Source of the DNA: a phage
Reading direction: 5' to 3' (one strand)
DNA length: 64,000 nt
Sequence record: PZ171035.1
Below are positions 3,827 to 29,345 of the stretch, piece after piece. A program made the position numbers and the translations under genes. A model generated the notes under the pieces. It ran no database searches and was not told the origin of the DNA. It worked only from the letters and a program-made list of their open reading frames with translations. Position 1 is the first letter of the stretch. Each line of letters starts with the position of its first letter.

Positions 3827-5009
3827 TCACAAAATGAACCAATTTCCTCAGCACACACTTAGTGATGAACAACTCATGCGTGAGTATGACCGTATTCAGG
3901 CCCAAGCCTTCCTGGGCAAGTCTGCTGCGTTCTTTGGTTCATTACTGTGTAGCCTTAAATTCTCATGGAAACGTGAGGATTGTCCCACTGCATGTACCGA
4001 TGGGATAGAACTCCATTTCAACCCAGATTTCTTTATCTGGATGTGTCCAGATGCAAGAGAAACAGTGTTAATGCACGAATTATGGCATGTGGCATATCTA
4101 CATGACATCCGTCGTGGAAGCCGTGACCCAGAAGTCTGGAACCAGGCATGTGACCACTTCATTAACCTTCAGTTAGAAGAGGATGGTTATAAGTTCACTG
4201 GTATTGATGAAGGCATTTGCAAAGACCCCCAATATAAAGGATGGGTCGAAGAAGACATCTACGATGACCTGATGAAGAACCCTCAGAAAAGGCAGAAGCC
4301 GTCAGGGGGTGCTGGAGCAGGTCTTGCTGGCGACATGAAATCCCCCACTTCGGGGCAGTCCCAGGGTGCTGTTGTCAACAACGTAGTACGTGCAATGCAG
4401 AGCCAGAAGATGGCAGGTGGAACAATGCCCGGTAAAGGTGCTGGTCGTATGGAAGAGGTTATTACCCAATTCCTTAAACCAGTGGTTCCATGGCAGGAAG
4501 TCCTTATGAACTTCTTTACCGACATTGATGACACTCATTATACGTGGGCCAGACCTAACCGTCGTTACACTGACATCTATCTACCTTCTTTAGAAGATGA
4601 TGAAGGGCGTTTACGACACTTAGCCTACTTTGAGGATGTATCTGGTTCCATCAGTAGTGCTGACTCTCTGCGTTTTAACTCAGAGGTTGCCTACGTTAAG
4701 AGCCAGTTTAATCCTAAGAAGATGTCATTAATTACCTTCGACGATATTATCCAAGAAGAGATAGACATCACTGAAGAAGATACTTTTGAGGAGATTAAGA
4801 TTACTGGTCGTGGTGGTACAAACCTGGAACCAGTGCGTGATTGGATTATTAAGAATAAGCCAACCGCTGCAATCATATTCTCCGATATGTATGTTCGTCC
4901 AATGGAAGAATTGCCATTTGATATTCCTATCATCTGGTGTGTTCTGAATAATCCCAATGCTACCGTACCTTTTGGGGAGGTAGTTCATATCCCTAAAGGA
5001 ATGAAATAA
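3801..5009 (+). CDS. vWA-domain protein with metallopeptidase-like HExxH motif
   Basis: 402 aa; HELWH motif in N-terminal half; C-terminal half vWA-like; alternative in-frame start at 3834 just after ATPase stop. Confidence 0.55.
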   Translation: MSLVTFTGNHKMNQFPQHTLSDEQLMREYDRIQAQAFLGKSAAFFGSLLCSLKFSWKREDCPTACTDGIELHFNPDFFIWMCPDARETVLMHELWHVAYLHDIRRGSRDPEVWNQACDHFINLQLEEDGYKFTGIDEGICKDPQYKGWVEEDIYDDLMKNPQKRQKPSGGAGAGLAGDMKSPTSGQSQGAVVNNVVRAMQSQKMAGGTMPGKGAGRMEEVITQFLKPVVPWQEVLMNFFTDIDDTHYTWARPNRRYTDIYLPSLEDDEGRLRHLAYFEDVSGSISSADSLRFNSEVAYVKSQFNPKKMSLITFDDIIQEEIDITEEDTFEEIKITGRGGTNLEPVRDWIIKNKPTAAIIFSDMYVRPMEELPFDIPIIWCVLNNPNATVPFGEVVHIPKGMK

Positions 5010-5515
5010 TGGTTGTTAATGGTAATTCTCTATATCGCTCATCTCAGTTGCTGGATGTACCAGACCGTAAGGTATCCAAGCATGGTGTAAGCTATGGGTT
5101 GGGTGAAGCTGGTTATGATATTCGTATCAAACAGGATATTACCTTCTATCGCTTATTTGGGTTGATTCCAATGGTGAAGGTCGTTGATGGAAATCAAGTA
5201 TCACGCCATCTCGGTAAGTTCACATTGGCTTCGGCAATCGAGAAGTTCAACATGTCTCCTTCCTGTGTAGCAATCGTTCACGATAAATCTACATGGGCAA
5301 GACGTGCATTATCAGTGTTCAATACCGTAATAGAACCAGGATGGAAAGGGTATCTCACCCTTGAACTGGTCTACCATGGTCGTAAGAAATTGCATATCCC
5401 GGCTGGTTCTGGGATAGCTCAAGTATTATTTCATCTGGTTCAAGAACCTGCTAATTACAATGGCAAGTATCAGAACCAGGAAAACCAACCAGTAGCTGCT
5501 AGACCTTCAAAATAA
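5009..5515 (+). CDS. dcd: dCTP deaminase / dUTPase-fold protein
   Basis: 168 aa; GYDIR and PGWKGYLTLEL motifs resemble the dCTP deaminase family. Confidence 0.55.
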   Translation: MVVNGNSLYRSSQLLDVPDRKVSKHGVSYGLGEAGYDIRIKQDITFYRLFGLIPMVKVVDGNQVSRHLGKFTLASAIEKFNMSPSCVAIVHDKSTWARRALSVFNTVIEPGWKGYLTLELVYHGRKKLHIPAGSGIAQVLFHLVQEPANYNGKYQNQENQPVAARPSK

Positions 5516-5545
5516 AAGGCTATCCGGCTTAATTAAGGAAACAAC

Positions 5546-5755
5546 ATGTCAGTATTTCAAGTAACTCATGCAACCTCAGATGTACGCTTAACCATTAATG
5601 CTGTAAATGTAATTGCAGTAGAACAGATTCCACAGTCTGACCATGCACGCGTAATATTTGTAGATAAGAACTATATAGAAACCAAAGAAACCTATCGTTC
5701 TGTACGTAATTACCTGAAAAAAGCTCTTGCTCCTGCAAATAAAGATGCTGAGTAA
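5546..5755 (+). CDS. hypothetical protein
   Basis: 69-aa ORF followed by a 12-bp perfect hairpin. Confidence 0.4.
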   Translation: MSVFQVTHATSDVRLTINAVNVIAVEQIPQSDHARVIFVDKNYIETKETYRSVRNYLKKALAPANKDAE

Positions 5756-5766
5756 GTAGCTGCCTA

Positions 5767-5793
5767 AATAGCCCAACATAGTTGGGCTATTTG
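5767..5793 (+). terminator. hairpin, terminator-like
   Basis: AAATAGCCCAAC-ATA-GTTGGGCTATTT perfect 12-bp stem; weak T tract. Confidence 0.4.
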
Positions 5794-5828
5794 TGAAGAA
5801 ACTAACTCAACCTCACATAGGAACCATC

Positions 5829-6071
5829 ATGGAATCTTTAGCAGCAATCCTTGTTATGTTGTTTGTATTAGCGGTATACCTTATCCCTACTATCATTGCT
5901 TTTTCACGAGGCCATGCCTCTAAGTGGGGCATTGGTGTGCTCAATATCGTATTAGGCTGGTCACTAGTATTTTGGGTAGTAGCACTGATTTGGTCACTGT
6001 CCAACAAAGGTCAGAACCAGGTTACGAATGTAACTGTTGTTCAAACCAATGGTGGCAGTAAAGCAGAGTAA
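5829..6071 (+). CDS. superinfection-immunity-like small membrane protein (Imm-family-like)
   Basis: PTIIAFSRGHASKWGIGVLNIVLGWSLVFWVVALIWSL; ORF-track GTG start at 5793 lies inside the upstream hairpin, so ATG 5829 with AGGA RBS is preferred. Confidence 0.45.
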   Translation: MESLAAILVMLFVLAVYLIPTIIAFSRGHASKWGIGVLNIVLGWSLVFWVVALIWSLSNKGQNQVTNVTVVQTNGGSKAE

Positions 6072-6145
6072 CTAATCTAAGCATCATTACATAGTGGTGC
6101 TTGTGGAAGTTGCTTCCAGCTCATTGCTTATCCATCTCCTAACCC

Positions 6146-6172
6146 AAGCCCACCTAACCCGTGGGCTTTTTT
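6146..6172 (+). terminator. rho-independent terminator
   Basis: AGCCCAC-CTAACCC-GTGGGCT followed by T6. Confidence 0.7.
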
Positions 6173-6188
6173 AATTATAGGTACTCTT

Positions 6189-6569
6189 ATGACAAACAGA
6201 CAAAATGGTAAGTCTATCCTACAAGGACTGGACTTCGGTAAGCTGGAACAAACTGCAATGCTTGCTTTGGGTAAAGCTATACATGACCAAGTGGATAATG
6301 AAATTGAAGCAGATCTTTATGCAACAATGCAGGCTCTTATTCAGAAAAAATGGACTACTACCAGAGCTTTTCCTTCATACATTCCTTCAGAACCCCATCT
6401 GAAATCTAAGGTAGACAGAATCATAGATAAGTTCTGGCTTAGCCCCCATTATGACGAAATGCATCTTTACTTGGCTCAAATACAAAAGAATCCTTATACC
6501 AAGGATGTGTTCAAAGGAAAGAGCACTACCCACCACTACCCCTGGTATAGAAGAGGTAGTAAATACTAA
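6189..6569 (+). CDS. hypothetical protein
   Basis: 126-aa ORF. Confidence 0.45.
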   Translation: MTNRQNGKSILQGLDFGKLEQTAMLALGKAIHDQVDNEIEADLYATMQALIQKKWTTTRAFPSYIPSEPHLKSKVDRIIDKFWLSPHYDEMHLYLAQIQKNPYTKDVFKGKSTTHHYPWYRRGSKY

Positions 6570-7012
6570 TGCGTATCCCATTCCTAAGAAAAAGAGAGCA
6601 AAGGCGTGTTCTTTATAAGAAGGACATAGAGGATGAGTATGAACTCAACCGTAAAGCCCGTTCCTACACAGCAAAATTATTCATGGGGACTAGCAACCCT
6701 GATAGATTACTGGACTTTGTTTTCGAACAAGTCTTTATAATATACAGCTTAGCTATGTCTGCTGGTTCACAAGAAGTAAGTGATAAGGCAAGAGATGCTC
6801 TCTGTATGCTCCGTAAAGAGTATGAAGCCCTCATGTATGAAGACTTGTACTCCTTTAAAAAAGAAACCGCTGTAGCGTGTTCTGTGGCTCTTACTGAAGG
6901 TATAGCAGTATTACAGGAACTACCCCGTAGTGAGTTTAAGCTGGTATATGTTCAGGCCAAGAAGATTACAGAAAGCCGTAGTGGTATCACCAACTATCTA
7001 AGGTCATTCTAA
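6569..7012 (+). CDS. hypothetical protein
   Basis: 147-aa ORF; start/stop overlaps with both neighbours. Confidence 0.45.
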   Translation: MRIPFLRKREQRRVLYKKDIEDEYELNRKARSYTAKLFMGTSNPDRLLDFVFEQVFIIYSLAMSAGSQEVSDKARDALCMLRKEYEALMYEDLYSFKKETAVACSVALTEGIAVLQELPRSEFKLVYVQAKKITESRSGITNYLRSF

Positions 7013-7956
7013 TGATTAAGGCAACTGTCATTGCAGATTCCGTGCATCATGCAACAGGTACTCGTATTACTACCTTTGAATTGGTTTACCCCCGATTCAT
7101 TCACAGTGAATTTATGACCCACCGTGTATTCAACCGTAATGCTTCAAGTAGCCGTGCTATTCCCACTGCTAAGTTCATCGAACAGGTTCGTAATGAACCA
7201 GTGATGCCAAGTCACTGGGGCAAGAACCAGAAAGGTATGCAAGCAGAGGAAGAACTCACTCCTATGGAGATTGAGGATGCTAAGTTTATCTGGGATAACG
7301 CTGCTTCTGCTGCTGCTGTGTATGCTGAACAACTACGTCGTGGGCAAGTACATAAGCAGATTGTTAACCGTATCTTGGAACCATTCACACATATTCGTGT
7401 AGTGGTAACTTCAACTAGCTGGGCTAACTTCTATGGACTGCGTGACCACAAAGATGCACAACCAGAGATTCGTGAACTGGCTCAAGCAATGCGTAAGGCA
7501 CAGGAAGAAAGTACACCAAGAGCATTACCATATGGGCAATGGCATATGCCGTACATTACTCATATTGACCGTGTTGGGGCTTACAATTTCTGCAAACGCA
7601 ATCGAATTACACGCGATGAACCAAGTGATGCAGAAGTGCATGGATTACTTCTCAAGATAAGTGCTGCACGCTGTGCTCGTGCTTCCTATAACAACTTTGA
7701 AGGACGTCCATCTACTATCGAAGAAGACCTTGGCTTATTCGCTAAGTTAGTGGAAAACCAACCTATACATGCTTCGCCAACGGAACATCAGGCTACACCT
7801 ATGAACCTTGGTGAGAAGTATGTAAATAACATGAACCCAGTTACTTGGGAACAAGGTGTTACATCCATGGATAAAGAAGGGAATCTGTACTCAGGCAACC
7901 TACTTCACTTTATCCAATTACGTAAATTAATCCCTGGTGAGACTATTACTGAATGA
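7012..7956 (+). CDS. thyX: flavin-dependent thymidylate synthase (ThyX-like)
   Basis: 314 aa; THRVFNRNASSSR resembles the ThyX RHR-x7-S signature. Confidence 0.5.
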   Translation: MIKATVIADSVHHATGTRITTFELVYPRFIHSEFMTHRVFNRNASSSRAIPTAKFIEQVRNEPVMPSHWGKNQKGMQAEEELTPMEIEDAKFIWDNAASAAAVYAEQLRRGQVHKQIVNRILEPFTHIRVVVTSTSWANFYGLRDHKDAQPEIRELAQAMRKAQEESTPRALPYGQWHMPYITHIDRVGAYNFCKRNRITRDEPSDAEVHGLLLKISAARCARASYNNFEGRPSTIEEDLGLFAKLVENQPIHASPTEHQATPMNLGEKYVNNMNPVTWEQGVTSMDKEGNLYSGNLLHFIQLRKLIPGETITE

Positions 7957-8192
7957 AAAAACTAGCTCTATATGCAATGCTAACTAGTGGCTTACTCACA
8001 TTAATCTTCGCATACAAAGTCGCCTTTGTATTAGAAACAGATATGCAGTTCATTCGAGCCAGTATTCTGTTCTTCGTAAGTGAGATTGGTTTGTGGTGTC
8101 TTTATTATATTGCTCGCGACTATGAAGCAATTCGAGAACACGATGAAGCAAAGGAACGTATGAGACGCTTCATTGAAGAAAATAGTAAGTAA
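7953..8192 (+). CDS. small membrane protein
   Basis: 79 aa, two hydrophobic segments; followed by terminator. Confidence 0.45.
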   Translation: MKKLALYAMLTSGLLTLIFAYKVAFVLETDMQFIRASILFFVSEIGLWCLYYIARDYEAIREHDEAKERMRRFIEENSK

Positions 8193-8198
8193 ACCTAA

Positions 8199-8223
8199 GA
8201 CCTCCTCCGGGAGGTCTTTTTTT
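8199..8223 (+). terminator. rho-independent terminator
   Basis: GACCTCC-TCCG-GGAGGTC followed by T7. Confidence 0.7.
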
Positions 8224-8252
8224 GGTTTCAACTAACTCTTTTAGGAGGGTTT

Positions 8253-8465
8253 ATGCCTGCTAAATACCGTATCAAAGACACCCCAGTAATGTGTGAGGGT
8301 GAGAAGGGTGACATTGTATATGCCTGTGTTCAGGATGATTTCAATGCTGCCCAAATGCTAACCCAAATGACAAATACACTGCATGTATCAGTAACACTGG
8401 ACCCTACCGGTGACTATCCATGCTTCCCTATTCCTGCCCATAACCTGGAGCAAATTCATGATTAA
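8253..8465 (+). CDS. hypothetical protein
   Basis: 70-aa ORF with upstream GGAGGG. Confidence 0.4.
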   Translation: MPAKYRIKDTPVMCEGEKGDIVYACVQDDFNAAQMLTQMTNTLHVSVTLDPTGDYPCFPIPAHNLEQIHD

Positions 8466-8772
8466 CCCTGAAGTAATACATAGTAAAACCGGTAAGGCTG
8501 TCCCACTTAGTGAGATTGCAGTTACAGGTGATATTGCTACTTGTCCAGCAAACATTGCCTCCCTGTGTATGTGCATTGCTGCACTAGCAGAAGAACGTAA
8601 GTTATGGTTGGAGCCAAGTAAAGAAATGGTACTGGCTGGTATGGCTGAACTGAATGCACTATTGAAAGAAATGTATGACGAAAATGGTCAATTAGTTGAA
8701 CCAACTGATGAACAAATTTCAGACGCTGTAGTATTTGTACTACAAGCAATGGCGGAGAAACGAAATGGCTAA
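8458..8772 (+). CDS. hypothetical protein
   Basis: ATGA overlap with upstream stop; ORF-track start at 8410 judged too far upstream. Confidence 0.4.
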   Translation: MINPEVIHSKTGKAVPLSEIAVTGDIATCPANIASLCMCIAALAEERKLWLEPSKEMVLAGMAELNALLKEMYDENGQLVEPTDEQISDAVVFVLQAMAEKRNG

Positions 8773-8959
8773 TGCTACAGTAAAAAGCAAAAACCAATAC
8801 TCCATCTCTATTGATGGCCTATCTAAAGAAGATTTACTAATTCTAGCTAGTTTTATGCAAAACAGTCCTTTTGGTTACAGTCCCCATGAGGAACCAGAAA
8901 AAGAACGAGAATTGCGTAAAGAAATCTTTGAAGCCTGTAAATCAGCATTAGATTCTTAA
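8765..8959 (+). CDS. hypothetical protein
   Basis: ATGGCTAA overlap start; 64 aa. Confidence 0.3.
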   Translation: MANATVKSKNQYSISIDGLSKEDLLILASFMQNSPFGYSPHEEPEKERELRKEIFEACKSALDS

Positions 8960-9002
8960 TAGTCATAACCAAGAAGCAACATTTAATCTGGAGAGTAAAT
9001 AA

Positions 9003-11570
9003 ATGTTAGTTGCAGATACCAATGAAGTAGCTACCTCAGCGACACTGGGTGGCAAAGAAACAATTGCCTTTGGCATCTCTGATGACCCGGCATTCTTCCA
9101 TGTATTAAGTACTTCCCTGTATAACAATCCTACTCTGGCAGTAGTCCGTGAGACTATCTGTAATAGTTGGGATGCTCACATTGAAGCAGGTAAGACTGAT
9201 ACTTCTATTCGTATCACTATTGATACAGACAACTTTATTACCTTCCGTGACTACGGTAATGGAATCCCGGATGAACTCATTGGTTCCATTTATGGTGTCT
9301 ATGGTGCATCTACTAAAAAGTCTAACAGTAGTGTTACCGGTGGCTTTGGTCTGGGATGTAAATCCCCATTCGCTTATACAGATAGCTTCCAGGTTACTTC
9401 GTGGAACCAGGGAAAGATGTCAGTGTATAACGTAGCCAAAGCTGCGATTGAGAATGACGGTAAGCCGGGCATTGTTCCTATTGTTACTGGTATTCCTACT
9501 GAGGAATCTGGTCTGGAAGTTAAATTCCAGTTAGGCAAACATGATTTAAATACCTTTATTCATTACATCACATCAATCGTATTTAACGGTGAGATTAAAG
9601 CCGAGCTTAGTATCCCTAAACTCGTTAAAACGGAAGAAGGTAATAGTATTCAACAAGGTGACTACACCCTACTGAGTACACTAGGTATGTCATTTGAACC
9701 TGGTTCATATGATATGTCTGATAGCTGGTATAAAGGCTATATGGGCAACAGTAACATATTCGTTCGTTACGGTAACGTAATGTACCCAATTGTAACCAGC
9801 CCAGCTAGTGAAGAGGCTGTAGGTCTTATCCTCAATTTTATGAATATCATTGATGCTGACAATTTAGTAGTTCAGGCTGCACCGGATACTCTAGCTATTG
9901 CTCCTAGTCGTGAAACGCTGTCTAACCAGAAGTTAACAGACGACGGTATTACTACTCTATGCGTAGATTTAGTAGACCGTATGGAGAAAGAGATTAAGGC
10001 TAAGATTCCTGAAGCTATTAAGCAGGTTGAAGAATACGCCTCTAAATCCTCTACTTGCTTTTGGACCTATCCGTCTTTCTTGCTTGCTGTTACAGACCCA
10101 ATTGTTCAACGCTATATGTCCTCTAGTTTGTGGGCTAAGCAGCGTAAGCATCACATCAAGCATTGGCGTAATCTATCCAATAAAGCATTGTTAGCTCGTC
10201 CTGAATATGCAGGTCTTAAAAAACTGTATGGTAAGGCTATGCGTGCTCTTAAGGATACTCGTGAAGAAAGTACATACTCCCCATTCCATGAATTAGTATA
10301 TCGCCATCTGCACTTGCCTCAGCTTGCTGCTTTAAAAGCCTCTGGTGTTAAGTGGTCTGGTTACATAATGAACCAAGGTAATTCTGTAGACTTGGTGAAA
10401 GGTAAACTTACAGACTACTTTAAGATGTACCATACCTCACATCAGGGTATCGGCATATTCACTACCAAGAACGTTGTAGTTACTCGACGTTTATCTGATT
10501 GTGCAGACTCTTTCTCATACTTCCCTGAATACAACCGAGGTGACCTGGAGCGTACAGCTTTTGTTCACGTCGTTGGACCTAAAAAGGGGGCAGCAGAGGA
10601 AGCTGTAGCTAAGTTCACTGCCATGGGCTATCGGGTAATTGACCTTACTCAATATAATGAGTGGGACAAACCAACCAACTACCGTAGAGAACAAACTAAG
10701 ATAGCTGCCGAGAAACGTGCTAAGACAATAGCTGCCAATAAAACCAAAGCAGGAGGTAAAACTAATGCACTGGTTTCATTGAATGCAGTTATTGATACTA
10801 CCCGGGTACGGTATAAAAATGGTGATTGGGAACTCAAGCCATATATCCAGAAGGAATTTGCTGACCCAAGTCGCCATGAGAAGTACGGTTTCGTCGAAGT
10901 GGAGCAACCTAAGTACTACGTACTGGCTAATCAGATTAGTTCTGGTAGTCCTGTGACTGCTCGAATTGGAACCATGTGGAAATGGTATGAGTTATCTGAT
11001 GAGATGAAAGCAGAGACTGTTGTCTGCCGTAATCAAATAGAAGCTAACAAGGCCAAACGACGTGGTGCTATCCACATTGATGATGTTCGCTTTATGGAAC
11101 TGATGTCTGTTATTACCAGCAAAGGATTCAAGAAATATGTTACTGAACATCGCATCGGTATTCTGGAATATATAGAACTGGATGACAGAGAATACTGGGA
11201 AATTCTAGACATACTGGGTCTAACATTCAAACCATTACAGAATCTGATTTTTAAACCAGAGTATGAATGGGCATATGACTTTTTACGAAATCGACCACAT
11301 GACAACAAAGAAAAACTTGTTGAAATGGGTTGTATTAAGTCAGTGGATGACTTAGAGCCATATACAATGATGGTTAATCCCCGTAACCATAAGTACTTTA
11401 AAATACTTAATGATTACAAAGGATTATTCAGTTATAGCTGGGATAAGAATGACATTCTACAGACGCTGGACTTAGGTAGTTTGGTCAAACACCTTAAGAA
11501 GAATCCAGAGGATATTCCTGGGTTTAAGTCCCTCTACCGTAATCGTCTAAATAAACTGAAAGGTAACTAA
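9003..11570 (+). CDS. rIIA: rIIA-like protein with N-terminal GHKL (histidine-kinase-like) ATPase domain
   Basis: 855 aa; N-box ETICNSWDAH, G1 RDYGNGIP, G2 TGGFGLGCKS; size and position match the rIIA/rIIB pair of N4-like phages. Confidence 0.5.
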   Translation: MLVADTNEVATSATLGGKETIAFGISDDPAFFHVLSTSLYNNPTLAVVRETICNSWDAHIEAGKTDTSIRITIDTDNFITFRDYGNGIPDELIGSIYGVYGASTKKSNSSVTGGFGLGCKSPFAYTDSFQVTSWNQGKMSVYNVAKAAIENDGKPGIVPIVTGIPTEESGLEVKFQLGKHDLNTFIHYITSIVFNGEIKAELSIPKLVKTEEGNSIQQGDYTLLSTLGMSFEPGSYDMSDSWYKGYMGNSNIFVRYGNVMYPIVTSPASEEAVGLILNFMNIIDADNLVVQAAPDTLAIAPSRETLSNQKLTDDGITTLCVDLVDRMEKEIKAKIPEAIKQVEEYASKSSTCFWTYPSFLLAVTDPIVQRYMSSSLWAKQRKHHIKHWRNLSNKALLARPEYAGLKKLYGKAMRALKDTREESTYSPFHELVYRHLHLPQLAALKASGVKWSGYIMNQGNSVDLVKGKLTDYFKMYHTSHQGIGIFTTKNVVVTRRLSDCADSFSYFPEYNRGDLERTAFVHVVGPKKGAAEEAVAKFTAMGYRVIDLTQYNEWDKPTNYRREQTKIAAEKRAKTIAANKTKAGGKTNALVSLNAVIDTTRVRYKNGDWELKPYIQKEFADPSRHEKYGFVEVEQPKYYVLANQISSGSPVTARIGTMWKWYELSDEMKAETVVCRNQIEANKAKRRGAIHIDDVRFMELMSVITSKGFKKYVTEHRIGILEYIELDDREYWEILDILGLTFKPLQNLIFKPEYEWAYDFLRNRPHDNKEKLVEMGCIKSVDDLEPYTMMVNPRNHKYFKILNDYKGLFSYSWDKNDILQTLDLGSLVKHLKKNPEDIPGFKSLYRNRLNKLKGN

Positions 11571-11574
11571 TCTG

Positions 11575-13626
11575 ATGAAAATCGAACTGATTTCTATCAT
11601 CGCACTGGCAGTTGACAGTCGTAACCTTACACTGTGGAAGCCTGATGGCTCCACAATTGTATATCCACAGAGCGACCCACGGGTTGCTCGTATTGTATCT
11701 GAAGCACAAACCAAAGGTCTGGGAACTACCAAAGATCAAATAGAAGTAAACATTGCACCAGAAGTAAACCTGCGTACTGAATATCTGGAAGCAGAGAAGA
11801 ACACTAACGGATTCGTCCGTTTCTTCAAGGTAGCTAAAGCTAAACTTAAAGAGTTCTTCCAGGATGGCACGGGTACTCAACCTAACCGTATTATTTCTGA
11901 TATTAAGCTAGGCAACCCTACTAAAACATTAGTATCTAAAGCTATGGATACCTTCCTGGCTGTACAGGCTAATGAACCAGAAGTAACTGTAACAGATGGT
12001 TGTTATGACAGACGTGACAACCTGATGTGGGTTACTGGCTGGGACAAAGACCATAACCATCCTGCACTGGTTCGTTTTATCAATGACGTATTGCGTTGTG
12101 GTTATGACCATACCAACCGTACTCTTGCACAAGAATGGCCTATTGCAATTCGTGCGGTATCCGATGATGAAATGGGTGAGTTTGTTAAACAAGCTCAGCA
12201 CATCAAAGGGGTACACGTTGTATTTACCAGTCGTGATGTAACGCCATTTCCTTACATAGAAGTGGCTAAAACTACGAACCAGGATAAGCTGGCTGCTGCT
12301 TCTGAGAAGTTAGCTGCATTGGGTGCTATTAGTACTGATGATGCTAACTTCCACACTGAAGTGAAAGAAGATGAAGTGGTTGTTGCCGTTACCAACAATG
12401 GGGTTATCCCTGGAGTTGAGAACCTGCAGCGTCACCTGCGTCAGTCTGCCAAGCTGAAAGACTACAAGGGCTTTACCAAGTTCCTTGAGCGTCTGGCTCC
12501 AGTTATTAAAGACCGTCTGCACTCAGTGGAAGACCTGATGAAGTTCATGGAAACTGCTGAACTGCCTATCGCTGATGATGGCTCTATTCTATTCCTGAAA
12601 CGCCTTAAGTTCCATGGCACAGAAGATGGAAAACGTGTATTCGTTGACTGTCACTCAGGTAACATCCGTCAGTGGGTAGGCTGTAAAGTACAGGTACGAG
12701 AAGACCTGGTAGACCCTGACCGTCGTCAGGACTGCTCTAATGGTCTACACGTAGCATCCATGAGTTACATTCGTCACTTCGGTGGTAACGTAACTATCCT
12801 TGGTAAAGTAGCACCAGAAGATGTATTTGCTGTTCCTGAGTACAACACTAATAAGATGCGTGTAGCTGCGTATCACATTATTGCTGAACTACCAGAAGAG
12901 GAACGTTGCAACGTTAACAGTGGTATCTACCTGTCTAAGACAGAAGTAGGTAAAAAGTTACTTAATGATGCCATCGTTGGGAACCATAGTTCACCTACCA
13001 CACTTGTTATGGTTGGCGGTCACTATGGTACTAACCTCAAATACACTAATCTCTCATCTGGTTCTGTAGAACAATTCCGTACAGTTGCTAATAAAGAAGC
13101 ACTGAACATGGAAGAGTCACTGAATGAAGCTGTAGCTGCTGAACCAGTAAAAGCTACTGACCTTAAACCTGTTATTAAGAAGGCTCCTACTGTGAAAGAA
13201 CAAATCCAGGAACTGGTTAAAGAGTTCCTCAATGCAACAACACCAGAAGATAAGTTAGCTGCTGCTGATTTACTTGTGGAAATGCGAGGTAAGGCTCGTA
13301 AGCCATGGGCTGCTTTAGGTGTTGGATCCGATGTGGTGGCTAAGATTGCTGATGTACGTACAACTTACACAGCTAAACCTATCGGCAAACCAAAATCAGT
13401 GAAGCAGACTAAGGTTCACCGTTCGGCTACTGCCACTAAGGTAGCACCGTCTGGTAAACACGCTGATAATCTGCGTAGCATCCTGAATGATACGACGTAC
13501 TCCGACTATCAGAAAGGCCATGCTCTGCAAGACTATAAGCGTTATGCTAAGAAGTCATTCACTGCAATGGGTCTGACTGAGGAAGAAGCTAAGTTAGCTA
13601 CCAAGCTGGTCAAGGCTGCTAAGTAA
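11575..13626 (+). CDS. rIIB: rIIB-like protein
   Basis: 683-aa ORF immediately downstream of the rIIA-like gene; assigned by synteny only. Confidence 0.35.
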   Translation: MKIELISIIALAVDSRNLTLWKPDGSTIVYPQSDPRVARIVSEAQTKGLGTTKDQIEVNIAPEVNLRTEYLEAEKNTNGFVRFFKVAKAKLKEFFQDGTGTQPNRIISDIKLGNPTKTLVSKAMDTFLAVQANEPEVTVTDGCYDRRDNLMWVTGWDKDHNHPALVRFINDVLRCGYDHTNRTLAQEWPIAIRAVSDDEMGEFVKQAQHIKGVHVVFTSRDVTPFPYIEVAKTTNQDKLAAASEKLAALGAISTDDANFHTEVKEDEVVVAVTNNGVIPGVENLQRHLRQSAKLKDYKGFTKFLERLAPVIKDRLHSVEDLMKFMETAELPIADDGSILFLKRLKFHGTEDGKRVFVDCHSGNIRQWVGCKVQVREDLVDPDRRQDCSNGLHVASMSYIRHFGGNVTILGKVAPEDVFAVPEYNTNKMRVAAYHIIAELPEEERCNVNSGIYLSKTEVGKKLLNDAIVGNHSSPTTLVMVGGHYGTNLKYTNLSSGSVEQFRTVANKEALNMEESLNEAVAAEPVKATDLKPVIKKAPTVKEQIQELVKEFLNATTPEDKLAAADLLVEMRGKARKPWAALGVGSDVVAKIADVRTTYTAKPIGKPKSVKQTKVHRSATATKVAPSGKHADNLRSILNDTTYSDYQKGHALQDYKRYAKKSFTAMGLTEEEAKLATKLVKAAK

Positions 13627-13641
13627 TAGCCTGTTCAAATG

Positions 13642-13672
13642 CCCTCACTTGTAATAAAGTGAGGGTAAATTT
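13642..13672 (+). terminator. hairpin, weak terminator
   Basis: CCCTCACTT-GTAATA-AAGTGAGGG 9-bp stem followed by TAAATTT. Confidence 0.4.
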
Positions 13673-13688
13673 GAAGAGGAAATGTACT

Positions 13689-14084
13689 ATGAGTAAAGTT
13701 TACAGAGTTAATCGCAAAGCAACTGATGAAGACATCATTCGTATGAATGCTGTTGGTTTGTCCCTCGCAACTATCGCTAAGACGCTGGGGGTTCACCCCA
13801 CTACGGTTACTTTGCGATTGCGTTCTTTAAACATTGAACCAGCCGACACACGTCGGACGTTCATGGAGAGTGTACTCCGTCCATTACCAACCCATGTGGC
13901 AGATTGGCTATCAGAGCAAGTTGGTCCTGCTTATGAGATTCGTTCATATGTAAGGGACTTGATTCTGGAGGCATATAATAATCGCCACCTTAACCAAGAG
14001 AGTGAACATGACAAGTTCATCCGTTTGTACGCTGGCAAATACGGAAGCCTGGTTCCGGAAAGCAGTACCAAATCCAACGAGTAA
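13689..14084 (+). CDS. putative DNA-binding protein (HTH)
   Basis: ATG 13689 with GAGGAA RBS; HTH-like LSLATIAKTLGVHPTTVTLRL. Confidence 0.4.
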   Translation: MSKVYRVNRKATDEDIIRMNAVGLSLATIAKTLGVHPTTVTLRLRSLNIEPADTRRTFMESVLRPLPTHVADWLSEQVGPAYEIRSYVRDLILEAYNNRHLNQESEHDKFIRLYAGKYGSLVPESSTKSNE

Positions 14085-27332: not shown

Positions 27333-27408
27333 TACCCGGTAGGCTTAGTGGTAAAGCCCCACTAGTAAACCAACTAGGACGCAGGTTCGAATCCTGTCCG
27401 GGTAGCCA
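27333..27408 (+). tRNA. tRNA (anticodon not resolved)
   Basis: Acceptor TACCCGG/CCGGGTA, D-arm GGCT-TAGTGGTAA-AGCC, T-arm GCAGG-TTCGAAT-CCTGT, discriminator G plus CCA; anticodon arm pairs only with a shifted, non-canonical register. Confidence 0.55.
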
Positions 27409-27413
27409 TTTAT

Positions 27414-27498
27414 GCCCACTTAGCTCAGTGGTAGAGCGCAGGAAAGCTTCGAGAGAACAAGGTGTCTGTGGTCACTGGTTCAAATCCAGTAGTGGGTA
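27414..27498 (+). tRNA. tRNA, 85 nt, probably long-variable-arm type (anticodon not resolved)
   Basis: Acceptor GCCCACT/AGTGGGT, D-arm GCTC-AGTGGTA-GAGC, T-arm ACTGG-TTCAAAT-CCAGT; no CCA encoded; no canonical anticodon stem found by eye. Confidence 0.5.
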
Positions 27499-27813
27499 CT
27501 TATTTGCTGCAATATTCCCATAGGGAATGGTGTCGTATACGCCACCTAGTTTCTGGTGAAACTCCAGATGCAGCAATCCATTCAGCAGTAACATAGTCCT
27601 GATTGCATTGCACTCTAAAGACAACACTGGTAAGACAGTCCAGTGGCTGCTATTGTATTGATATTCCCCTCGACGGGAATTTCGCTAGTGAAGGTAACAC
27701 TTAAAAATCCAAACCCACGTCTTACTGCTATCGGGCTATCAACCCACAGTCGCTTAACACACTAGTGGTAGTAGTTTGACGACCTAGCCTCGTTAGCTGC
27801 GTTAAAGCTACTA

Positions 27814-27850
27814 AGTCCCCTAGAGCCGCCCCTCTAGGGGACTTTTTTAT
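27814..27850 (+). terminator. rho-independent terminator (12-bp perfect stem)
   Basis: AGTCCCCTAGAG-CCGCCC-CTCTAGGGGACT followed by T6. Confidence 0.75.
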
Positions 27851-29310: not shown

Positions 29311-29315
29311 AATAG

Positions 29316-29345
29316 AAGCCCCTCATTAGAGGGGCTTTTTCATTT
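29316..29345. terminator. bidirectional rho-independent terminator between convergent operons
   Basis: AAGCCCCTC-ATTA-GAGGGGCTT with T-rich tracts on both strands; sits between + strand stop (29310) and vRNAP stop (29344). Confidence 0.7.

Follow-up and report, generated by a model that had tools for sequence, protein, structure and literature searches.

A predicted Imm-family superinfection-immunity gene in the middle-gene cluster of a Gamaleyavirus

Does the short open reading frame (ORF) between a hairpin and a terminator in phage record PZ171035.1 encode a superinfection-immunity protein, and do the two flanking structures give it regulation of its own? We addressed both questions in a stretch of 64,000 nucleotides of this record (hereafter the window), to which all coordinates refer unless another genome is named. 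Megablast identified the window as a Gamaleyavirus (Schitoviridae, Enquatrovirinae), that is a G7C-like, N4-related E. coli podovirus, with ~93% identity over 25 kb to PE007, St11Ph5, PD205 and others. The original prediction had placed an 80-aa ORF between a 12-bp perfect hairpin and an intrinsic terminator; this arrangement was borne out (Table 1), and the span given for it, 5767-6172, is right to within one base. The ORF, hereafter imm, lies within a rightward cluster of middle genes for nucleotide metabolism and replication, with the local order gp25 (DUF2201), gp26 (dCTP deaminase), gp27, imm, gp28, gp29 and gp30 (ThyX). In N4, a middle RNA polymerase encoded by the phage itself transcribes the corresponding rightward cluster. 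The gp27 homologue, which occupies the same position in G7C, Bp4 and N4, has its stop codon 10 nt short of the hairpin, and the gp28 homologue starts 17 nt past the T-run of the terminator.

Table 1. Coordinates of the imm locus, its neighbours and the tRNA genes in the window
Feature	Coordinates	Strand	Description
gp27 homologue	5546-5755	+	69 aa; PHROG 7594, E = 3e-34
Hairpin U	5766-5792	+	Arms 5766-5777/5781-5792, 12 Watson-Crick bp, loop ATA, extra G.U 5765/5793
5' leader	5793-5828	+	36 nt; Shine-Dalgarno AGGA; diversity 0.037 versus synonymous 0.196
imm	5829-6071	+	80-aa inner-membrane protein (predicted), Imm_superinfect family; G7C gp27.1 orthologue
SL1	6078-6103	+	Right after imm stop; structure conserved, sequence not
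SL2	6105-6117	+	GGAAG-TTG-CTTCC; stem invariant save one G.U variant
Intrinsic terminator (predicted)	6146-6172	+	Stem 6146-6153/6161-6168 (8 bp, 5 GC), 7-nt loop, six-T run 6167-6172
gp28 homologue	6189-6569	+	126 aa; PHROG 12812; Bp4 note 'similar to N4 gp28'
Two adjacent tRNA genes	27333-27405 and 27414-27498	+	Rfam RF00005, 39.3 and 53.9 bits

The ORF runs from an ATG at 5829 to a TAA at 6069-6071, is preceded by a Shine-Dalgarno AGGA at 5819-5822, 6 nt 5' of the start, and encodes the product MESLAAILVMLFVLAVYLIPTIIAFSRGHASKWGIGVLNIVLGWSLVFWVVALIWSLSNKGQNQVTNVTVVQTNGGSKAE. It is a real gene under purifying selection: across 20 distinct homologues of the cassette taken from public phage records, pN/pS is 0.13, and variable sites fall on codon positions 1, 2 and 3 in a ratio of 12/2/29 (first 60 codons, 20 distinct relatives). 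A longer, 92-aa reading from a GTG at 5793 was rejected; it has no Shine-Dalgarno sequence, its start lies within the hairpin, and the codon is GAG in one relative.

As a gene, imm is ordinary and already annotated at this locus in dozens of public genomes. The PE007 protein is 100% identical, and the G7C record lists the orthologue as 'gp27.1, immunity to superinfection; similar to Imm of phage JS98' and annotates the upstream stem-loop too. An Imm annotation is likewise present in Bp4 (orf62), St11Ph5, SP5M (gp32), ECBP1, IME11 and others, and the downstream terminator is annotated in SP5M. Gene call itself therefore adds little, the locus having been annotated in G7C and many Gamaleyavirus genomes. 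G7C gp27.1 and the other Gamaleyavirus orthologues (84-100% identity) share the locus, the flanking hairpin and the terminator, and differ in nothing substantial apart from two alternative C-terminal tails among relatives. The gene occupies the same gp27/gp28 site in all Gamaleyavirus records examined, as well as in three more divergent uncultured relatives with the same imm architecture, whose DNA is ~77-78% identical to Moo19 and other Gamaleyavirus-type records and whose Imm proteins are 59-68% identical. In the searchable literature, we found no experimental test of Imm or of an exclusion phenotype for any N4-like phage.

Judging from profile and pairwise comparisons, the ORF product almost certainly belongs to the Imm_superinfect family (PF14373), of which T4 Imm is the characterised member. 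It scores 61.9 bits (E = 5.2e-17) against PF14373, with residues 16-57 aligned to profile positions 1-42 of 42, relative to a gathering cut-off of 27.9 bits; in the same search, T4 Imm scores slightly lower (58.2 bits). Complementarily, PHROG 1039, 'immunity to superinfection', is matched at E = 1.5e-29, BLASTP aligns the protein with T4 Imm at 30% identity over 61 aa (E = 4e-10), and tblastn finds T-even-type Imm genes at 44-46% identity. The Imm-type family call of the original prediction thus holds, and the profile search proposed along with it returned a match over the full length of the profile. Specific polar and aromatic residues are conserved (P20, R27, G28, W44, W49 and W55). Two of these, R27 and W44, align with R33 and W50 of T4 Imm, where R33A or W50A is reported to weaken exclusion (bioRxiv 10.64898/2026.03.06.709160). 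The equivalent of W44 is L in the Chaseviridae, the closest non-schitovirus clade, so this tryptophan is not universally required in the family. Other searches were uninformative: a PDB sequence search gave no match at E <= 1, no NCBIfam model matches either Imm or T4 Imm, and the best Foldseek hit of the AlphaFold2 (AF2) model in BFVD had an insignificant E = 0.96, a comparison that says little for a two-helix protein.

Kyte-Doolittle peaks mark two hydrophobic segments at residues ~1-25 and 34-58, and the AF2 model (mean pLDDT 68.7, moderate confidence) has helices at 2-26 and 32-62 followed by a disordered tail. The GW...IWSL two-helix pattern on which the family call had first been based can be located precisely, with GW at residues 43-44 and IWSL at 54-57, in a protein with two hydrophobic segments. 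The core (residues 16-57) is conserved and the polar C-terminal tail (58-80) is variable, in fact the most variable part of the protein, with a diversity of 0.26. Residues 61-80 (6009-6071) occur as two unrelated alleles, ...NQVTNVTVVQTNGGSKAE and ...SQTTIVNVGSGNQYNVSQTSQSDK, and as recombinants (seven relatives noted, G7C among them); the window carries the ...NQVTNVTVVQTNGGSKAE form. In the Bp4 record, a 1-nt deletion shifts the frame within the tail and cuts the protein to 67 aa. From this pattern of variation, the C-terminal tail is a candidate specificity element.

Comparison with known systems places the protein close to T4 Imm (83 aa, UniProt P08986), the founder of PF14373, which has a similar length, two hydrophobic segments and the shared motifs P-x(2)-I-A-x(2)-R-G and G/N-W-S...W...I-W-S. 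T4 imm likewise resides in a virulent phage by nucleotide-metabolism and replication genes, between genes 42 and 43. The two proteins differ in that they are only 30% identical and that the polar C-terminal tail is different and variable; moreover, the carrier here is a short-tailed schitovirus that has no tape measure protein and whose cluster is, in N4, read by the phage's own middle polymerase. The nearest relatives of the protein are found in Chaseviridae and T-even-type myoviruses. Among these, the Imm of Chaseviridae coliphages (for example Mangalitsa gp34, Carltongylesvirus) is the closest outside the schitoviruses, with 56-61% identity and an SNKGQ...VNVGS-type tail; Chaseviridae are myoviruses that should have a tape measure protein, and they differ in genomic context and in the L at the W44 equivalent. 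In three Carltongylesvirus-like contigs (5000-6650), imm stands alone, with no called genes for ~1 kb upstream and 370 nt downstream. Named tblastn matches outside Gamaleyavirus include T-even-type and Acinetobacter myoviruses, small Salmonella and E. coli siphoviruses, and Mycobacterium and Gordonia phages. Functional analogues are HK97 gp15 and P22 SieA, small inner-membrane proteins reported to block entry of superinfecting genomes, of which HK97 gp15 is proposed to target the tape measure protein. Both are prophage-expressed, and they are likened to Imm by function, not by sequence.

Hairpin U, upstream of imm, is the longest short-loop inverted repeat in the 64-kb window and folds with an energy of -18.1 kcal/mol (z = -4.56; 0 of 200 shuffles as stable). 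It combines an A-rich 5' base, a GC core and a U-rich 3' base (UAUUUGUG). It has no uninterrupted U-run, the 3' tail being UAUUUGUG if the GC core alone pairs and GUGAAGAA if the full stem does, and a scan for terminator-like sites did not list it. Its basal 9 bp are invariant in 20 relatives (diversity 0), and the following GTGAAGAAAC is conserved as well. The apex varies within Gamaleyavirus, mostly in ways that remain G.U-compatible on the + strand, and divergent relatives have a different stem sequence with pairing retained. Overall, 95.6% of cells pair and six of 13 pairs are changed on both sides (0 of 500 shuffles), much of this being supplied by the N4 hairpin, whose equivalence to U or SL1 is uncertain. 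On the template strand, the G.U apex variants would read as A.C mismatches, a pattern of substitutions that suggests a role for hairpin U at the RNA level. Hairpin U is probably a weak terminator or attenuator, or an RNA-stability element, that ends the gp24-gp27 genes.

Downstream of imm, SL1 exists in three sequence-unrelated variants among relatives, each of which folds as a hairpin, and of the eight pairs for which RNAalifold reported compensatory changes most lie within its stem. After SL2 comes a C-rich stretch (6118-6145), conserved and unpaired, in which CATTGCTTA is found; together, SL2 and this stretch have a diversity of 0.039. The element at 6146-6172, which begins 74 nt past the imm stop, fits an intrinsic (rho-independent type) terminator, with a predicted GC-rich stem followed by a U-run. 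On its own, it is moderately unusual (z = -2.8), with 16 terminator-like sites found in 12 kb versus 7.8 expected. Its stem is invariant in 20 relatives and its diversity is 0.02, and a homologous terminator is present in N4 and in divergent relatives. As a yardstick for the non-coding parts, we used the synonymous diversity of the imm coding sequence, 0.196; the base of hairpin U, the leader, SL2 with the C-rich stretch and the terminator all lie far below this value, which argues that they are under selection. On the - strand, 6174-6203 holds a sigma-70-like site (TTGTCT, 18 nt, TATAAT; 10 of 12 matches) directed leftward into the terminator, antisense to imm. It is probably due to chance, because the -10 element reads TGTAAT in most relatives.

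None of these structures appears to be a known or dispersed RNA element. Pattern scans of IMG/VR for hairpin U and for the 3' UTR gave a single occurrence of each per genome, confined to one set of seven Gamaleyavirus contigs, which shows that neither is a dispersed repeat. Rfam gave no match to the hairpins or the 3' UTR, either in a permissive search of 5500-6400 or at the gathering threshold over the whole window, where the two tRNA genes were the sole matches. Elsewhere in the window, two GC-rich hairpins at 27813-27844 (13-bp stem) and 29314-29339 (11-bp stem) have T-runs readable on both strands and are, by this layout, probably bidirectional terminators.

Which of the surrounding elements belong to imm can be judged from N4, whose genome contains no Imm homologue: tblastn found nothing below E = 2, and a profile HMM of the Gamaleyavirus family had no match. 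The N4 gp27-gp28 intergenic region (113 nt) aligns with the window at ~6087 to 6190 and consists, in order, of a hairpin just after the gp27 stop, GGAAATTCC, CATTGCTTA, a C-rich stretch and the terminator GCCCAC...GTGGGC-T6-AATTA; the SL2 region is homologous to N4 GGAAATTCC...CATTGCTTA. The terminator and the sequence before it are therefore not features of an imm cassette, because N4 has both and lacks imm. Aligned in this way, 'imm plus one hairpin' is an indel inside a pre-existing operon-end region, and it would fit either a gain of imm in the G7C-like lineage or a loss in N4. Hairpin U and SL1 each come after a stop context of ...GAGTAA and have the loop motif ACATAGT and the tail TTGTG(G)AAG in common, and short collinear repeats surround imm (5747-5758/6063-6074 and 5776-5788/6089-6101). 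That the two hairpins are flanking direct repeats, suited to gain or loss by short-homology recombination, is a weak lead, their local alignment score being reached by 90 of 2,000 shuffles, a statistically weak similarity.

Neighbouring junctions vary as well. G7C has no gp28 homologue and carries gp29 in its place (G7C 13619-13741), so the junction just past the terminator is also an indel hot spot. Farther off, between gp17 and gp24, N4 encodes gp18 (annotated 'superinfection exclusion, similar to P22 gp17'), the membrane protein gp19 and the lipoprotein gp20 (N4 7668-9092), and G7C has the unrelated small ORFs gp17.1-17.3 there. The N4 and G7C genera may carry alternative accessory sets.

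On the second part of our question, independent regulation of imm had been suggested by the original prediction, and for this we see no support. The 36-nt leader contains no promoter-like site, the terminator is common to the imm-less N4, and similar hairpins occur at other junctions. A search of the + strand from 5700 to 5830 revealed no sigma-70-like site, and the rules for N4-type RNAPII middle promoters are too poorly defined for a scan. Hairpins of the same build as U (A-rich 5' base, GC core, U-rich 3' base, then GAAG or GAAA) stand at the ends of the gp17-like and rIIB genes. At the former, an AU-flanked hairpin at 859-877 (TTGGGGTTATAAACCCCAA, then TATGAAAC) precedes a strong terminator at 896-918 with T7; the same tandem thus follows the gp17-like gene and imm, and 'hairpin then terminator' appears to be a common way for operons to end in these phages. 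The hairpin between the rIIB stop at 13626 and an ATG at 13689 occupies 13640-13667 (AAATGCCCTCACTT...AAGTGAGGGTAAATTT, then GAAGAGGAAA) and has no U-run; its counterpart in G7C is annotated as a stem_loop. Genome-wide, the combination 'hairpin + TNTGRA' yields no convincing motif, occurring in 6 of 118 + strand hairpins, mostly intragenic, with three intergenic. Hairpin and terminator around imm should not be taken as evidence for a self-contained regulatory unit. Past the strong terminators in the 6174-6189 and 8223-8253 regions, the next start codon follows within ~15-35 nt, so read-through, or promoters that precede or overlap the terminators, must be general in this region.

Because no promoter is recognisable, we infer that imm is most likely not autonomous and would be the last gene of upstream middle transcripts that read through hairpin U, with its strong stem and broken U-tract. 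Such read-through may attenuate the expression of a potentially toxic membrane protein, and the transcripts would end, at least in part, at the terminator at 6146-6172. Over-expression of T4 Imm reportedly impaired growth (bioRxiv 10.64898/2026.03.06.709160). In the middle phase of infection, the protein would then become embedded in the inner membrane of its host cell and block entry of secondary phage genomes at the inner-membrane step, as T4 Imm does; it is by homology only that we infer this exclusion function. Taken together, we give family membership, exclusion function and read-through expression a probability of roughly 0.65.

Several other readings have to be weighed against this one. 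That the ORF encodes a holin-like or otherwise unrelated small membrane protein, resembling Imm merely in hydrophobic composition, is very improbable. A holin is indeed the top Foldseek match in BFVD, yet at the E = 0.96 given above, and weak Pfam matches extend to other transmembrane families, namely DUF3302 (E = 0.005) and DUF3810. Against these stand a PF14373 score twice the curated cut-off across the full profile, with conservation of specific polar and aromatic residues, and the location of the lysis genes elsewhere in N4-like genomes; by the Pfam and T4 Imm comparisons, the holin-like reading is effectively refuted. A true family member could also serve another role, such as protection of the membrane against adsorbing phages or ghosts, lysis timing, or membrane-associated transcription or replication. 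Such a role would sit well with the lack of a tape measure target in schitoviruses, with the location of imm, whose neighbours are genes for nucleotide metabolism and replication and not other exclusion genes, and with the reported membrane association of N4 middle transcription; in the literature searched, moreover, the family has experimental support in T-even phages only. We nonetheless consider it unlikely, as the protein matches the profile no less strongly than T4 Imm, both T4 functional residues are kept, and the family is an accessory gene in many unrelated virulent and temperate phages, a distribution that fits inter-phage competition.

As to expression, hairpin U could be not a terminator but a hairpin promoter for a phage RNA polymerase, of the type described in LUZ7, which would make imm autonomous after all. 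In LUZ7, middle transcription starts at a G that lies ~15 bp downstream of a GC-rich hairpin, whose loop measures 3-4 nt and whose stem has 6 bp or more (PMC9163698). In hairpin U, the loop is 3 nt long with its centre at 5779, and a G is found at both 5793 and 5795. Both the hairpin and the GTGAAGAAAC after it are conserved, and the next genes follow terminators so closely that promoters must overlap or precede structured elements. Gamaleyaviruses, however, have the N4-type cofactors gp1 and gp2, and N4 RNAPII promoters are described as AT-rich, unlike those of LUZ7 (PMC9163698). The common apex variants, G.U pairs on the + strand, would put A.C mismatches into a DNA hairpin of the template strand, and the loop (ATA/TAT) and 12-bp stem speak against this role as well. 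Nor does hairpin U resemble the promoters of the N4 virion RNA polymerase, which are defined by a stem of 5-7 bp, by G at loop positions -11 and -10 and by their place at the left genome end: its loop is ATA (+) or TAT (-), its stem has 12 bp and it lies ~13 kb into a ~72-kb genome. We therefore regard a promoter function as quite improbable and retain the reading of imm as an exclusion gene expressed by read-through.

If imm is such an exclusion gene, its target needs a different explanation than in T4. According to one preprint (bioRxiv 10.64898/2026.03.06.709160), T4 Imm binds gp29, the tape measure protein, at its membrane-inserting domain, and this reported binding is the family's sole mechanistic model. 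Schitoviruses eject gp50, gp51 and gp52 in place of a tape measure protein, so the model cannot apply literally to a podovirus, and the target should be either the schitovirus ejectosome or the tape measure proteins of long-tailed competitors. In self-exclusion, the protein would act on an inner-membrane part of the ejectosome, possibly the gp51 C-terminus or the gp50 N-terminal domain; in cross-exclusion, its partners would be the tape measure proteins of competing phages with long tails. Imm may exclude such competitors, its own kind via a different partner, or both. More tentatively still, we offer the idea that Gamaleyavirus Imm is a horizontally acquired, cross-morphotype weapon against long-tailed phages, or else a generic recogniser of ejection proteins including gp51 and gp50, with the tail tuning specificity.

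The Imm orthologue of these phages is thus a cheap test case for what Imm proteins recognise where there is no tape measure protein. For the design of phage cocktails, cross-exclusion between N4-like and T-even phages would matter.
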